From: Spirochaetota bacterium
Lineage (GTDB): Bacteria > Spirochaetota > Spirochaetia > Treponematales > Treponemataceae
Assembly (NCBI GenBank): GCA_016285185.1
Contig: JAEEQG010000031.1
Coordinates: 4,118 to 68,117 of the forward strand
Reading direction: 5' to 3'
Length of the DNA: 64,000 nt
The position numbers and the translations under genes were made by a program. Below, one piece after another: positions 56,049-61,074 of this stretch; within the stretch, counting starts at the first letter, position 1, and every line of letters begins with the position of its first letter. Below the pieces are notes generated by a model. The model did not search any database and was not told where the DNA came from. It was given only the letters and a program-made list of their open reading frames with translations.

Positions 56049-56627
56049 TTAAGAAAGCTCTTGCAAATTTGAATTGCATGCACACAAAAGCTCATCAACG
56101 GAAGCAACTTTCCATTTTTCGCAGGCGAGCTTTATGATAAGTCCGCAAGTGCGGGAATCTTCGAGCGCATCATGGGCAAGGTAGTCTATTCCGAATGTAC
56201 TGCCTAAAAAGGTAAGCGCGTGACTTTTCAGCTCCGGCCATGTTCTGCGCGAAATACGCAAAGAATCAAAGTACCTTATCTTTGGCAGCTCCATATTAAA
56301 ACGGTCGCAGCATCCCTTTATAACGCCCATATCAAAAGAAGCGTTGTGCGCTACCAGCGGAAAATCAGGGGTTTTGTCCAAAAAAGGTTGAACCAAATTC
56401 TGCCACACTTCGGGAAAACACGGCTGATCTACAACGTCTTCATAACTTATATGATGAATGTCGCGTGTCCATTCCGGTACAAAATACATAACAGCGGGTT
56501 TTATAAGATGACAGACGCTGTCTGTTTCTACTCCGTTTTCAAATCTTATAAGCCCTATGGAACAGGCACTGCACGAAAGTTTGTTTGCTGTTTCAAAGTC
56601 AATGGCAATGTAATTAAGTTCGTTCAT
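56049..56627 (-). CDS. DEDDh 3'-5' exonuclease (DnaQ/epsilon-like, stand-alone)
   Basis: Exo I IAIDFETAN, Exo II AHNASFDMGV, and Exo III HDALEDSRTC. I chose the ATG at 56627. The 120-aa upstream extension of the track ORF overlaps the opposite-strand gene and shows no similarity. Confidence 0.8.
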   Translation of the reverse strand: MNELNYIAIDFETANKLSCSACSIGLIRFENGVETDSVCHLIKPAVMYFVPEWTRDIHHISYEDVVDQPCFPEVWQNLVQPFLDKTPDFPLVAHNASFDMGVIKGCCDRFNMELPKIRYFDSLRISRRTWPELKSHALTFLGSTFGIDYLAHDALEDSRTCGLIIKLACEKWKVASVDELLCACNSNLQELS

Positions 56628-56735
56628 AATTTTTGTACTTACGGATATATTACCTGTAGAACGTGAAAAAGTACAGACCGAAAAGCTTTGCTGTTGAAAA
56701 TGACTGCCGGATTGTGTAGAATTCTGCAAGCAACT

Positions 56736-57263
56736 ATGAAAAATGAAAGTCCGAGTATTGTTGTACACGAAATAAAACCTGTTTGGAACAGCAAAAGCAC
56801 AGTTCTGATTCTCGGAACAATGCCGTCTCCCAAAAGCCGTGAAGCCGGTTTTTTCTATATGCATCCTCAGAACCGCTTTTGGAAGGTTCTGCCTCAAGTA
56901 TTCGGTGAAACACTTGTTTATGCCAACAATGCACCCCAAAAAGATAAAGCTGTTGAGGAACGTATTGATTTTTTGTACCGGCATCAAATTGCGCTTTGGG
57001 ATGTGCTTAAAAGCTGCGAAATTACAGGTGCGGCGGATTCAAGCATAAAAAACGCAGTACCGAACGACTTTACACAGATTTTCTCGGAATCACAAATCAA
57101 AAGGGTTTTCTGTACCGGTAATACCGCATTTTTGCTCTGGAACAAATATTGTGCAGCCAAATACCAGAGTTTCGGCATAACTTGCGAATGTCTTCCGAGT
57201 ACGAGCCCTGCAAATGCACGTTGGAATTTTGAAAAACTTGTTGCCGCATACCGCCGGATTTAA
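56736..57263 (+). CDS. UDG-superfamily DNA glycosylase, family 6 type (DNA-deoxyinosine/hypoxanthine glycosylase-like)
   Basis: VLILGTMPSPKSREAGFFYMHPQNRFWKVL, ALWDVLKSC and LPSTSPANA are present. The start is uncertain (ATG 56700 or 56736). An extended -10 (tgtTAGAAT) lies at 56714-56722. Confidence 0.7.
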   Translation: MKNESPSIVVHEIKPVWNSKSTVLILGTMPSPKSREAGFFYMHPQNRFWKVLPQVFGETLVYANNAPQKDKAVEERIDFLYRHQIALWDVLKSCEITGAADSSIKNAVPNDFTQIFSESQIKRVFCTGNTAFLLWNKYCAAKYQSFGITCECLPSTSPANARWNFEKLVAAYRRI

Positions 57264-57305: not shown

Positions 57306-57837
57306 ATGAGTTCAATTCAAATACAACAAAAAGGAATTACTGATATCCCGGCGGATGCGATTGTAAATGCGGCAAATACCGGTCTTTGGGCAGGAGGCGG
57401 TGTCTGCGGAGTTATATTCCGAAAAGCGGGTATGACAGAACTTACGGCAGCATGTAATGCAATCGGACACTGTGATGAGGGGAGTGCTGTTATTACACCG
57501 GGCTTCGGCTGTCCCTGCAAACACATTATTCATGCCGTAGGGCCTCGTTATTTGGATGGAAAGCATGGCGAACCGGATGCTCTTTACGGTGCATACAAAA
57601 AATCATTGGAATTGTGCCGCGAAAATGACATTCATTCGGTAGTATTCCCGCTTATTTCAGCAGGTATTTTTGGTTATCCTCTTTATGAGGCCTGGACTCA
57701 GGCAATGTATGCCTGCAAGAACTTTATTGAAAAAAAATCAGGATTATAATTTGGATATTATCTTTGCCATCCCTGAGACTGAAAAGGTAAAGGCTGGAAA
57801 GGAAATTAAAAATGCAGTTTTAGCAGATGGTAAATAG
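57306..57837 (+). pseudogene. macro-domain protein (ADP-ribose binding/hydrolase) interrupted by a +1 frameshift in an A8 tract
   Basis: ITDIPADAIVNAANTGLWAGGGVCGVIF and FPLISAGIFGYP are macro-domain motifs. The ORF stops at 57749. Removing one A from the run at 57730-57737 gives ...NFIEKNQDYNLDIIFAIPETEKVKAGKEIKNAVLADGK, ending at 57837, which restores the expected last beta-strand and helix. Confidence 0.6.
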
Positions 57838-57981: not shown

Positions 57982-58788
57982 TTGGCCACTACTACTAATC
58001 TTCTTATAGGCACAAGCGGTTTTGACTACCCCGAATGGAAGGGTGTGTTTTATCCTGCTGATTTAAAGCGTAAAGACTTTTTGCAGTATTATGCCACGCA
58101 GTTTAATGCGCTTGAGCTTAACGGCACATTTTATAATATGCCCACCGGTGAGAGGCTCCTTTCGTTTTACGAAAGGAGTGAGGGCAACTTACAGTTCAGC
58201 GTAAAGGCTAACCGCCTGCTCACACATGAAATTGCCCAAAACTGGCAGAGTACAGCACAGGCTTTTGAAGATGCGCTCAAGCCGCTTCAAGACAAAGGCT
58301 GCCTTAGCGCGGTGCTGTTTCAGTTTCCGCAGAGCTTTCATTATACAGAAGAAAACCGCTTGTATCTTGCTAATCTCATCAAAGTTTTTGACGGCTTTCC
58401 TGTTGTGATAGAGTTCCGCCACGCAGAATGGATAAAGGAATCCGTATTTGAAGGGCTTGAAAAGCGCAATGCCGGAATAGTTTTTTGCGATATGCCGCAG
58501 CTCAAGTACCTGCCCGACGGAAGCAGGCTCAAAACACCGTTTATCGGTAAGAATGCGTATATACGTCTTCACGGTCGCAACGAAAACGCCTGGTATTCGG
58601 TCAATGATTCTCCGAACGGCTCTGCACGATACAATTACGAATACAGCGACAGTGAGCTTGAAAGCTTTGTGCCTGTTATAAATCAGGCTTTGGTGGAAGA
58701 AAAAAAGGTTCACGTATTCTTTAACAACCACCCCAACGGCAACGGCGCAAAGAACGCAAAAAAGCTGAAACAGATGATGCAGGCGTAA
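57982..58788 (+). CDS. DUF72 (YecE/UPF0759) family protein
   Basis: LIGTSGFDYPEWKGVFYP, YYATQFNALELNGTFY, IEFRH and FFNNH resemble DUF72 signatures. It uses a TTG start preceded by aggaaaaa. Confidence 0.75.
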   Translation: MATTTNLLIGTSGFDYPEWKGVFYPADLKRKDFLQYYATQFNALELNGTFYNMPTGERLLSFYERSEGNLQFSVKANRLLTHEIAQNWQSTAQAFEDALKPLQDKGCLSAVLFQFPQSFHYTEENRLYLANLIKVFDGFPVVIEFRHAEWIKESVFEGLEKRNAGIVFCDMPQLKYLPDGSRLKTPFIGKNAYIRLHGRNENAWYSVNDSPNGSARYNYEYSDSELESFVPVINQALVEEKKVHVFFNNHPNGNGAKNAKKLKQMMQA

Positions 58789-58797
58789 TATCCGGTT

Positions 58798-59418
58798 TTA
58801 GCCCTGCAACTTGTGAACAACGTAGCGGACTTTACCCACTATCCTAAAGTCGTCGCTTTCGCCGCTTTCGGTCATGGGCGCATACATCTTGTTGTCTGAA
58901 ATAATGCGGACAAAGTCCTTGTCGCGCTGGAGACGTTTTACAAACGCCGCCCCCTTGTAGTTTATGGCATAAATGCCGTCAGCGCCGTCATAGCCGAAAG
59001 TGTCGTAAAGAATAATGTCATTGTCAAAAAGAGTCGGCTCCATCGAGTCTCCGCGCACATAAGAGGCGCGTATATTGTTGCGGTACTTTTTAAGATTGGC
59101 AGGAAGCGCAACATAATCCATAATTTCCGCGGTATCAGGCAGTTCCTGACCCTTACCGGCAGAAAAAGCCTGTTCATAAACCGGAATGTTTATAATATCT
59201 TTAGAAGGTACATCGGGGTACAGCTTGAACTGTTCCATAGTAAGACCGAGAGATTCAACTATTTTAAGCCCCTCATCAAAGCCCGGCAGCCTTCCGAGCG
59301 AAATCTTGTTGCGAAGTGAACCGAGTACAAGACCTGTCTGTTCACAAAGCCATTCCTGGTTCTTGTCCTGTTCAGAGAGCAAAAGCTTTACTTTTTTCCA
59401 AAATAGTTCCGCATCCAT
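58798..59418 (-). CDS. XRE-HTH / S24-peptidase repressor (phage CI / HdiR / LexA-like, autocleavable)
   Basis: N-terminal HTH (QEWLCEQTGLVLGSLRNKISLGR), a candidate Ala-Gly cleavage site (FSAGKG), the Ser motif GDSMEPT, and the Lys motif FVKRL. I chose the ATG at 59418. Confidence 0.8.
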   Translation of the reverse strand: MDAELFWKKVKLLLSEQDKNQEWLCEQTGLVLGSLRNKISLGRLPGFDEGLKIVESLGLTMEQFKLYPDVPSKDIINIPVYEQAFSAGKGQELPDTAEIMDYVALPANLKKYRNNIRASYVRGDSMEPTLFDNDIILYDTFGYDGADGIYAINYKGAAFVKRLQRDKDFVRIISDNKMYAPMTESGESDDFRIVGKVRYVVHKLQG

Positions 59419-59425
59419 GCTGATT

Positions 59426-59506
59426 ATTATACAATGATTTTTTAATAAAATAAATAACTGTTTGGTTATTATTTTTGTTGACAAATAATCGCCGCGGAAT
59501 TATTAT
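59426..59506. promoter_or_regulatory. divergent promoter/operator region between the S24 repressor gene and umuD-umuC
   Basis: Plus strand: TTGACA 59478-59483, 17 nt, TATTAT 59501-59506, 9 nt, ATG 59516. Minus strand: extended -10 tgtTATAAT (59431..59426), 7 nt, ATG 59418. Palindromes are AATAAC-N6-GTTATT (59453-59470) and AATAAT-N9-ATTATT (59484-59504). Confidence 0.5.
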
Positions 59507-59515
59507 CAAATTACA

Positions 59516-59821
59516 ATGATAAGCGGATTCCCCAGCCCCGCGCAGGGCTATGAAAGCAGTACGATAGATTTGAACACAATCCTCATAAAGCACCCTGCCG
59601 CAACCGTTTTTATGCAGATAGAAAGTTCACGCTACCGCAATATGGGCATTTATGACGGTGACCTGCTTGTAATTGACAGGGCGCTGCCGTTTAATCCAAA
59701 AGCTCTTGTGGTTTATGAATCGGAAGGACATTTTGCACTGGGGCGCGCGTGTAACATAGGGGATGAGATGCTTATTACTGGCACAATAACTTACATAATA
59801 CACACGGTAAAAAGAACATGA
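59516..59821 (+). CDS. umuD: UmuD-like Pol V accessory subunit, natively UmuD-prime-length, with catalytic Ser/Lys replaced
   Basis: It starts MIS-GFPSPAQGY..., where E. coli UmuD reads ...C24/G25FPSPAADY. IDLNTILIKHPAATVF and GIYDGDLLVID are conserved. It overlaps umuC by ATGA. Confidence 0.75.
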   Translation: MISGFPSPAQGYESSTIDLNTILIKHPAATVFMQIESSRYRNMGIYDGDLLVIDRALPFNPKALVVYESEGHFALGRACNIGDEMLITGTITYIIHTVKRT

Positions 59822-61074
59822 TTCTGCACGCCGACGGAAACTCTTTTTATGCCTCGTGCGAGCAGATTTACCGTCCCGACCTGCGCTCAAAACCGGTGGC
59901 GGTTCTCTCCAACAATGACGGCATAATAATCGCTCTGAACAAGGAAGCAAAAGCCTGCGGAATAAAGCGCGGAGACCCTTACTTTAAGGTGCGTGCCTTG
60001 TGTGCTTTGCACGGTATTACAATCTTTTCCAGCAATTACACCCTTTATGCGGACATCAGCCGGAGAATTACTTCCATATATGCCGAATACGCGCCCGAAA
60101 TTGAAGTGTATTCCATTGACGAATCTTTTTTGTTCTTTGATGACTGCAACTGGTCTATAAAAGACTATGAAGAAATCGGGCACGACCTTAAGCGCAGAAT
60201 TATGAAGGAAGTAGGAATTCCCATCTGCGTGGGAGCCGCACCCACAAAAACTCTCGCCAAGCTGTACAACAAGCGGGCAAAAGAACACGGCGGTGTTTTT
60301 GTATATGATTCTGCCGGTGTGGATGCGCTTTTGCAAACCACACCCTGCGGAGATATTTGGGGAATAGGTCCTGCCCGCGCAAAGACCCTTGCACAGCGTG
60401 GTGTTAAAAACGCACTTATGCTAAAGCACATGCCGCTTTGCGATGCTAAAAAGCTTTTGACTGTTCAGGGCATGGGTACTGTTCAGGAACTGAACGGAAT
60501 CCGTGTGATGGATAAAAACACAAGGCAAAAAAAGGATGTGATTACTTCAAGCAAGCAGTTTTCCATAAAAGTATATGATATGGAAACAATCGAGTGTGCC
60601 ATGGTTGAATACACCGAGATTGCTGTTGAGAGGATGCGCAAACAGGGGTCTGAGTGTCAGGCTGTGCAGGTTATTATCTCAACGTGCAACTATTACAGCG
60701 ATGACGCAAGCTTGCAGTATTCAAACGCGGCTGTTGTGCGCCTTCCGCGTTTTACCTCATACACGCCGGACATAGTAGCCGCCGCACGGCTTGCCCTGCC
60801 GCGGATTTTCCGCGAAGGGTACGGCTACAAGGTAGTTATGATAACGCTTTTGGAGCTGATGCCCGCGCAGTATCAGGGCTGGCTTTGGGTTGATCCTGTG
60901 GAAGACGTAAAAAAGCGCAATCTGATGGAAGCCGTTGATGCCATAACAGCTGCGTGCGGCCGCCATTCACTCACACTTGCCAAATCGTTCACCAAGGACG
61001 GCTGGCAGATGAAGCGCGAATTCCTGAGCCCCTGCGTTACCACAGACATAGACCGTGTTCCGGCCGTGCTGTGA
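59818..61074 (+). CDS. umuC: Y-family DNA polymerase V catalytic subunit
   Basis: ILHADGNSFYASCEQIYRPDLRSKPVAVLSNNDGIIIALNKEAKACGIKRGDPYF parallels the E. coli UmuC N terminus. SIDESFL is the catalytic DE. 418 aa. Confidence 0.9.
   Translation: MILHADGNSFYASCEQIYRPDLRSKPVAVLSNNDGIIIALNKEAKACGIKRGDPYFKVRALCALHGITIFSSNYTLYADISRRITSIYAEYAPEIEVYSIDESFLFFDDCNWSIKDYEEIGHDLKRRIMKEVGIPICVGAAPTKTLAKLYNKRAKEHGGVFVYDSAGVDALLQTTPCGDIWGIGPARAKTLAQRGVKNALMLKHMPLCDAKKLLTVQGMGTVQELNGIRVMDKNTRQKKDVITSSKQFSIKVYDMETIECAMVEYTEIAVERMRKQGSECQAVQVIISTCNYYSDDASLQYSNAAVVRLPRFTSYTPDIVAAARLALPRIFREGYGYKVVMITLLELMPAQYQGWLWVDPVEDVKKRNLMEAVDAITAACGRHSLTLAKSFTKDGWQMKREFLSPCVTTDIDRVPAVL

Follow-up and report, generated by a model that had tools for sequence, protein, structure and literature searches.

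In Escherichia coli, cleavage of UmuD is a late checkpoint that delays the mutagenic DNA polymerase V (Pol V), and uncleaved UmuD has a replication checkpoint role and targets UmuD′ to ClpXP. How is a Pol V-like polymerase controlled where its UmuD subunit is encoded in the cleaved form from the start? This question is raised by a 101-aa open reading frame (ORF) at positions 59516..59821 of the plus strand of a 64,000-nt stretch of Treponemataceae DNA (the window; Spirochaetota bacterium, assembly GCA_016285185.1, contig JAEEQG010000031.1, positions 4,118 to 68,117). The protein would serve a Pol V-like translesion polymerase as its small accessory subunit, made directly as UmuD′. We consider it probable that this ready-made subunit is non-cleaving and that damage sensing has moved to a local repressor, and with it to the level of transcription.

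Start and catalytic positions of the UmuD′-type protein

The ORF encodes a UmuD homologue with the arm M-I-S-GFPSPAQGY, its translation from the window opening with MISGFPSPAQGYESS / MISGFPSPAQGYESSTIDLN. A phmmer search against PDB chains aligned it without gaps to E. coli UmuD (8gmt_B, E = 2e-13) and matched it to UmuD′ (1umu, E = 5e-13). In the resulting numbering, residue n of the protein corresponds to residue n + 21 of E. coli UmuD. Gly4 falls on UmuD Gly25, the first residue of UmuD′, and only three residues precede it. The Ser60 position is occupied by Arg39 (codon 59630-59632), the Lys97 position by Gly76 (codon 59741-59743) and the Lys98 position by Arg77. The same residue placement was obtained with the NCBIfam UmuD profile, whose positions 2-76 cover residues 3-77 without a gap, and with the Pfam Peptidase_S24 profile (PF00717), whose positions 9-78 cover residues 4-74. 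The hand alignment of the first-pass annotation, which had put the start three residues before the UmuD′ N terminus, Arg at Ser60 and Gly at Lys97, therefore agrees with the pairwise, profile and structural comparisons. Relative to UmuD, the protein also lacks a stretch of about 17 residues, equal to two β-strands, between the Lys97 position and its last β-strand, a deletion that the first-pass annotation had not noted.

An in-frame TAA (59486..59488, plus strand) lies 10 codons (30 nt) 5′ of the umuD′ ATG. The nine codons between them (TCG CCG CGG AAT TAT TAT CAA ATT ACA) include no ATG, GTG or TTG. Because of this stop an N-terminal precursor arm is excluded, as had been proposed.

Both the Ser nucleophile and the Lys general base of the S24 peptidases are absent from the protein. 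A scissile Ala/Cys-Gly with a removable segment is also absent, with just M-I-S before Gly4. Having neither substrate segment nor Ser-Lys dyad, the predicted protein cannot cleave itself, and RecA*-stimulated self-cleavage would be neither needed nor possible. A displaced nucleophile at Ser37 or Ser38 was ruled out, since many family members have Thr, Asn, Asp, Lys or Glu there and since the substrate segment is missing.

Distribution and constraint of the short form

A word-indexed search covering 5.8 billion proteins, clustered at 90% identity, gave more than 105 clusters matching the 101-aa protein. Their named sources were Treponema, Treponemataceae or Spirochaetaceae, and the material came mainly from ruminant and gut metagenomes. 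All members shared the N terminus M-x-(T/S)-GFPSPAQGYE. A genomic scan with one genome per species found 125 loci, nearly all from Treponema or Spirochaetaceae, of which 80 were kept. The survey of spirochetes that the first-pass annotation had called for thus recovered the same short form in ~78 Treponema species representatives. Cultured carriers were T. bryantii NK4A124 and XBD1002, Treponema sp. C6A8 (with two copies) and JC4, and Treponema sp. UBA1240 matched the window at 99%.

Could a longer precursor have escaped notice because the assembly is wrong, the start was miscalled or the start codon is non-canonical? Gene callers have produced database versions of 114-141 aa for some homologues. 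These read as start miscalls through the promoter (“ILIDK” is the translated TTGACA box) or as C-terminal read-through. In the related loci examined across the ~78 species, isolate genomes included, a stop closes the frame shortly 5′ of the Met, and where the frame runs open for longer it crosses AT-rich promoter DNA with no conservation. In the window a near-consensus promoter (see below) falls inside the supposed extension. We regard a hidden precursor as extremely improbable.

The length of the protein was constant at 100-105 aa, and 34 diverse members had 16 invariant and 24 nearly invariant columns. The arm motif GFPSPAQGYE was, together with the last strand, the best-conserved stretch. 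Pro6, Ser7, Pro8, Gly89, His96 and Val98 were invariant, and Gly4, Phe5 and Ala9 nearly so. The pairwise ratio of nonsynonymous to synonymous substitution rates (dN/dS) ranged from 0.03 to 0.2 across the family, and one pair had no amino-acid difference at a proportion of synonymous differences (pS) of 0.25. The umuD′ form is under strong purifying selection and is not an artefact.

These data also bear on the idea that the gene is a functionless, decaying remnant of a full-length umuD. Such a pseudogene would fit a protein that has neither catalytic residues nor N-terminal arm and that has lost a β-hairpin, and umuC is deleted or interrupted in a few loci (L016, L017, L023, L026, L068 and L082). 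Against it stand the constant length, the conserved columns and the low dN/dS, including the pair without amino-acid change, as well as the coupling to umuC and the confidently folded model described below. Decay to a remnant is very improbable.

Residue statistics at the two catalytic positions were taken from 57 loci with both genes intact. Position 39 (the Ser60 site) had Arg in about two-thirds of them and His, Asn, Ser, Lys or Ala in the rest. Position 76 (the Lys97 site) had Gly in most, followed by Arg or Lys. A varied nucleophile position in an otherwise constrained protein matches what is expected for relaxed selection on catalysis.

The most divergent member (L008:4001-4366 and L009:381-746) had 121 aa, opened with MTPDSPSPALGF and was followed by an HD-domain gene (441-456 aa) in place of umuC. 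Distant relatives, with 37-43% identity, were found in metagenome-assembled genomes of Planctomycetota (L087, L088) and in other Spirochaetota (L086, L089). The planctomycetotal forms kept the Ser in RGDS(L/H) and had a possible N-terminal arm (…SA-GFPSPAQGYE); around the Lys position they had Arg or Cys, and their C-terminal half was shortened. The two spirochaetotal forms, L086 and L089, were without an arm and had Arg in place of Lys, with Ser or His where the nucleophile would be. These four forms look like intermediate states.

Predicted fold

An AlphaFold2 single-chain model of the 101-aa protein, built on an alignment of 34 family members, had an S24 β-fold (mean predicted local distance difference test 84, predicted template modelling score 0.72). 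Its top Foldseek match was UmuD′ 1ay9 (template modelling score 0.70, E = 3e-6). The model has five strands compared with seven in UmuD′, and the missing hairpin corresponds to E. coli residues about 100-122.

The UmuC partner

The umuC-type gene (59818..61074, plus strand) encodes a Y-family polymerase of 418 aa with the Pfam domains IMS, IMS_C and DUF4113. Its start at 59818 shares an ATGA with the TGA stop of umuD′. UmuC (NF002955) was by far the best NCBIfam family for the polymerase, at 302 bits and under the 431-bit cut-off. Identity with E. coli UmuC was 35%, and Asp6, Tyr11 (the steric gate) and Asp101-Glu102 were kept. The ATGA coupling to umuC, claimed earlier, stands. The motif LMEAVDAITAACGR aligned with the RecA-NT region of E. 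coli UmuC, and the C-terminal tail was conserved as W-x-MKRE-x-LSP-x-x-TT...P-x-V-x. Across the family, umuC lay 3′ of umuD′ in about 70 of the 80 loci. In the 57 loci with both genes intact, the 4-nt ATGA overlap was kept in 41, and UmuC was near-constant in length (418-419 aa).

In an AlphaFold model of Pol V, one UmuD′ arm slots between palm and little finger, beside the active site, and the final UmuC residues contribute an extra strand to the UmuD′ sheet (PMC11791011). The model places contacts at the UmuD′ arm and at the C terminus of UmuC, whose C-terminal carboxylate touches UmuD′ S36, T71 and K73, which are UmuD Ser60, Thr95 and Lys97; the arm is needed for mutagenesis in E. coli (PMC11791011). 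Set against this model, the Treponema UmuD′ has a well-conserved arm and last strand, and the pocket residues are replaced. No covariation pattern was found between position 39 and the last UmuC residues in the 57 loci.

A different role is conceivable, in which the protein would regulate or inhibit UmuC or some other polymerase, akin to the “polymerase manager” roles of uncleaved UmuD. The missing β-hairpin would suit such a role, and so would the HD-domain gene beside the distant member L008. Yet the most conserved part of the protein is the very arm that mutagenesis requires, the gene is tightly coupled to that of a UmuC which is catalytically intact and whose C-terminal tail is conserved, and the phage P1 record states that humD, with an equally ready-made N terminus, complements UmuD′. 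We consider a regulatory or inhibitory role improbable. As a Pol V subunit, the 101-aa protein would assemble with the co-translated UmuC into a Pol V-like complex.

Deletions in umuC were seen in several loci. In L016, L017, L023 and L026 the gene was internally deleted, with residues 1-51 joined to 365-417. Among L068, L082, L029 and L059 it was likewise deleted, or broken by a 2-3 kb insert. In all these loci umuD′ and the repressor gene were intact.

A divergent repressor gene and its candidate operator

The first-pass annotation had expected control to rest on transcription and/or proteolysis. Transcriptional control is what the flanking sequence points to, with a divergent repressor gene of the self-cleaving type and a covarying candidate operator at the promoter. 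The cI/LexA-like repressor gene (58798..59418, minus strand), which that annotation had not noted, encodes 206 aa from the ATG at 59418, with an N-terminal helix-turn-helix (HTH) region and a complete S24 domain. The Ala87-Gly88 site, Ser125 and Lys161 are all present. The protein matched Pfam S24 at E = 4e-19 and 68.8 bits (gathering score 23.3). Its GDSM and VKRL motifs align with UmuD Ser60 and Lys97, and the β-hairpin is kept. In 42 orthologues the motifs PVYEQAFSAG-x-GQ, VRGDSMEPT and FVKRLQR were at least 90% conserved. Residues 8-203 matched PHROG phrog_4 (transcriptional repressor), and there were further matches to CI-like repressor families of phage. The N-terminal region weakly matched the HTH protein 3bs3, and the Pfam scan gave no HTH match there. 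In the 42 loci the repressor gene was always divergent and at a fixed distance from umuD′.

A promoter scan by consensus match found a sigma-70-type promoter (TTGACA-17-TATTAT, 11/12 matches) at 59478..59506 on the plus strand. Its −10 box stops 9 nt short of the umuD′ ATG, and there is no Shine-Dalgarno sequence. Since the −10 box ends so close to the ATG, the umuD′C mRNA is predicted to be leaderless or nearly so. The distance from the −35 box to the ATG was 35-39 nt in most repressor-bearing loci. On the minus strand a possible −10 box of the repressor gene (TATAAT, 59426..59431), seen by eye only, lies 7 nt before the repressor ATG; the scan did not report it because its −35 box is weak. 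Both divergent genes appear to lack a leader. Same-strand direct repeats are present at 59423-59438 and 59499-59520, reading ATTATTAT(A/C)(C/A)AAT and TACAATGAT. The first overlaps the minus-strand TATAAT, 5 nt from the repressor start codon, and the second spans the umuD′ −10 box and start codon.

The candidate operator is an 18-bp palindrome, AATAAC-TGTTTG-GTTATT (59453..59470). It is flanked by the two divergent promoters and lies 7 bp upstream of the umuD′C −35 box. No second copy was found in the 64-kb window. Covariation of the arms was tested on 26 distinct loci with 500 shuffles and slid controls. Five inner arm positions remained complementary through two-sided changes. In total, 21 cells were changed on both sides, a count reached by none of the 500 shuffles, and the slid controls gave 0. 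The operators fell into classes such as AATAAC/GTTATT, AATACT/AGTATT, AATCAC/GTGATT and TGTAAT/ATTACA. The presumed recognition region of the repressor varied by operator class (VLGSLRNKISLGR, ILSTLRNKIHLDR, VIGTLRNWIYYKR, NYGSLRNRIHLGR, DLQSMRNRIYKNR), operator arms and HTH region changing jointly in at least five classes. Arms that covary and an HTH region that shifts in step with them are the signature of a cognate repressor-operator pair.

Is the local repressor indeed the sensor? Alternatively, umuD′C would answer to a genome-wide LexA or another trans-acting factor, or be expressed constitutively, with the divergent gene as a phage-type regulator unrelated to it. The matches to phage cI-like families fit this alternative. 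So do the loci without an adjacent repressor, about half of the family, which carry the palindromes ACTATA-N6-TATAGT or GGGAC-N8-GTCCC. The invariable divergence and fixed distance in 42 loci, with the operator abutting the −35 box, speak against it, as does the joint change of operator arms and HTH region. In the window itself the operator is single-copy, and a tblastn search with E. coli LexA, limited to the window, found no homologue. Control by something other than the local repressor is unlikely.

Examples of the repressor-less loci with these palindromes upstream of umuD′ are L046, L049, L051, L055, L074, L076, L081, L052, L053, L072 and L073 (within L019-L083), and also L007. Some had a leader with a normal Shine-Dalgarno sequence. 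A trans-acting, possibly LexA-like, regulator probably acts at such loci, with the palindromes as its candidate sites. Neither GGGAC-N8-GTCCC nor ACTATA-N6-TATAGT occurs in the 64-kb window.

Proposed regulation and points against it

We propose that the local repressor binds the 18-bp palindrome abutting the −35 box and keeps umuD′C off. Upon DNA damage, RecA* would prompt the repressor to cut itself at Ala87-Gly88 by means of Ser125 and Lys161, as its conserved motifs suggest. Cleavage would then derepress the nearly leaderless umuD′C mRNA, a step for which the covariation of operator and HTH region also argues. RecA would probably still activate the polymerase through the RecA-NT-like motif of UmuC. 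The two-step logic of E. coli, with LexA cleavage followed by the slower UmuD cleavage, would be merged into a single transcriptional step. By analogy with E. coli, these bacteria would also lack whatever depends on uncleaved UmuD, namely the UmuD2C checkpoint and the ClpXP removal of UmuD′ directed by UmuD. The earlier claim that the post-translational RecA* checkpoint on Pol V assembly is missing is supported, with a qualification. No cleavage of UmuD appears possible, but the RecA* input has probably moved to the repressor and was not lost, and the RecA-binding motif of UmuC is conserved.

Several points weigh against this interpretation. The 101-aa protein scored below the curated thresholds of the relevant profiles: for PF00717 it reached 18.6 bits (E = 0.0016), the gathering score being 23.3, for NCBIfam NF007621 (UmuD, “autoproteolytic subunit”) 71.9 bits with a cut-off of 110, and for NF051876 (HumD) 56.9 bits with a cut-off of 120. 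NF007621 was nonetheless its top-scoring NCBIfam family (E = 4e-20), and a precomputed PF00717 match is present on many of its homologues. The missing β-hairpin could change dimerisation or stoichiometry, and the loss of Ser60 and Lys97 might alter the docking of the UmuC C terminus. The umuD′C promoter and the leaderless start are predictions from consensus matches. With about half of the loci lacking an adjacent repressor, the repressor model does not extend to the whole family.

Comparison with known systems

The protein shares with E. coli UmuD/UmuD′ (1umu, 1ay9, 8gmt) the fold, ~32% identity, the GFPSPA arm and the position just upstream of umuC. The C-terminal β-strand is also kept (ITYIIHTVK compared with VVIHVVKAM). 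Unlike UmuD, the Treponema form has no 24-residue N-terminal segment, has Arg for Ser60 and Gly for Lys97, and lacks ~17 residues. Compared with UmuD′, it carries two or three extra residues (M-I-S/T) before the Gly.

As a trait, direct encoding of UmuD′ is neither unprecedented nor peculiar to this genome or to spirochetes. P1 HumD and N15 gp26 are also encoded directly as UmuD′ and start with M-GFPSPA in the alignment. P1 HumD keeps both Ser and Lys, whereas N15 gp26 has Thr at the Ser position and keeps the Lys. According to the P1 record, humD “functionally complements E. coli UmuD′”; a LexA site is annotated there upstream of humD, so that this gene is under transcriptional control. In contrast to the Treponema protein, both phage proteins keep the β-hairpin and are extended at the C terminus. 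Their genes stand alone in the phages and rely on the UmuC of the host, whereas the Treponema form has its own coupled umuC. It also differs from them in lying in bacterial contigs, in having lost both dyad residues and the hairpin, and in its 2-3 conserved extra N-terminal residues.

Going by the description of HdiR targets (PMC8565304), no UmuD homologue is known to have been reported for the streptococcal HdiR cassettes. S24 repressors other than LexA are known to govern error-prone polymerases, among them HdiR, UmuDAb, SetR and regulators of Bacteroidetes, and their paralogy accompanies operator divergence (PMC8565304, PMC8460599). The systems HdiR–umuC of Streptococcaceae, SetR–rumAB of the integrative conjugative element R391 and the non-canonical LexA of Bacteroidetes resemble the Treponema locus in having a phage-type S24 repressor with Ala-Gly, Ser and Lys and a palindromic operator, often in divergent arrangement (PMC8565304, PMC8460599). 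What sets the Treponema operon apart from these systems is a UmuD′ that is ready-made and catalytically dead; RumA still undergoes cleavage to RumA′ (PMC8460599). Each of the two principles, a ready-made UmuD′ (P1 HumD) and a dedicated S24 repressor (HdiR/SetR), is already known separately. Our literature searches returned no account of a Treponema UmuD or of a naturally truncated chromosomal UmuD.

Short and tandem forms in other lineages

When the Treponema profile was run against 1.84 billion cluster representatives, 5218 matched at E ≤ 0.001, and the best 150 were classified. These are ordered by likeness to that profile, and the start calls of metagenomic proteins are imperfect. Among these 150, complete single-domain proteins with at most 12 residues before the Gly25 position numbered 39, and 3 of them had both Ser and Lys. 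Both residues were present in 43 of the 66 proteins with an arm of at least 18 residues. The association between short arm and dyad loss was strong (Fisher p = 3e-9). Within the limits of these start calls, arm loss and dyad loss recur together. A short form of 98 aa was also found in the complete genome of Thermodesulfobium acidiphilum (WP_108309701.1).

The same 150 included 20 tandem two-domain UmuD/S24 proteins of 246-285 aa, encoded upstream of a Y-family polymerase (P0129-P0168). One example is WP_050486416.1 of Bacteroides ovatus, from plasmid NZ_CP041396.1 (L090:1723-2511). Its first domain and the Treponema protein aligned over their whole length, with 37% identity, and this domain has no hairpin, Ser or Lys. 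Unlike the Treponema form, it keeps a 26-residue N-terminal arm before A-GFPSPA. The second domain has no arm and retains Ser (GNSM) and Lys (TLKRV), so that cleavage would still be possible there. The Y-family polymerase gene follows with a 1-nt, ATGA-type overlap. By its sequence the tandem protein looks like a fused “substrate + protease” UmuD pair, and no description of such a pair was found in the literature examined. Possibly the minimal UmuD′ derived from, or was the source of, the dead first domain of the Bacteroides tandem UmuD. A horizontal origin from Bacteroides was unsupported, the UmuC being only 36% identical and no closer than to E. coli.

A broader reading can be offered tentatively, at somewhat less than even credence. 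“UmuD′-only” proteins would be a broad, polyphyletic and mostly unannotated class, in which arm loss is followed by dyad decay and sometimes hairpin loss. In gut and rumen Treponema the minimal UmuD′ would belong to a self-contained three-gene mutagenesis cassette of repressor, operator and umuD′C. Such cassettes would shift from one genomic site to another and have several immunity-like specificities of operator and HTH region, and a single genome could then hold several Pol V copies that are switched independently.

Possible cassette mobility and genomic neighbourhood

The flanks of the umuD′ locus differed in almost every species, with 55 clusters among 73 left flanks and 42 clusters among 54 right flanks. 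Several genomes held two or three copies of the locus. L015 and L018 had an identical UmuD′ (pS 0.25, proportion of nonsynonymous differences 0) and different repressor/operator classes (AATACT and TGTAAT, respectively), which suggests recombination between regulatory and polymerase modules. Together, the variable flanks, the multicopy genomes and this pair suggest a modular cassette that moves or recombines. No close relatives were found on known phages or plasmids, every match being below 60% identity, and a mobile-element origin is for that reason unsupported.

In the window, a DUF72 gene (57982-58788, plus strand) adjoins the cassette. DUF72 is reported to be enriched beside polB2 mutasome operons (PMC11791011). 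Further upstream, at 56049-56630 (minus), 56688-57263 (plus) and 57306-57749 (plus), the genes include Macro-domain, uracil-DNA glycosylase (UDG)-superfamily and RNase_T-type exonuclease types. Together with DUF72 they may form a small DNA-damage neighbourhood. A 312-aa ORF with a TTG start (56049-56987, minus strand) is over-extended: only its C-terminal ~193 aa match the RNase_T exonuclease family, and the beginning of the UDG-like ORF, which is on the opposite strand, overlaps with it.

Implications

The genes of this family carry the annotation “hypothetical protein” or “S24 family peptidase”, and their products score below curated profile cut-offs; Pol V is consequently under-counted in spirochetes and probably in other phyla. 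The locus encodes a minimal, natively activated and catalytically dead UmuD′. This form is a conserved feature of a clade of Treponema from gut and rumen, with parallels in other phyla. Its own repressor is probably damage-sensing. A natural UmuD′ of ~100 aa, with neither dyad nor hairpin, helps to show which parts of UmuD′ are required by Pol V and offers a test of the published model, where the C terminus of UmuC docks at Ser60 and Lys97. That a clade hard-wires the activated UmuD′ indicates that the UmuD-cleavage layer is dispensable in nature. The damage signal would in these bacteria be read wholly at the promoter, through a dedicated repressor predicted to be cleavable in response to RecA*.

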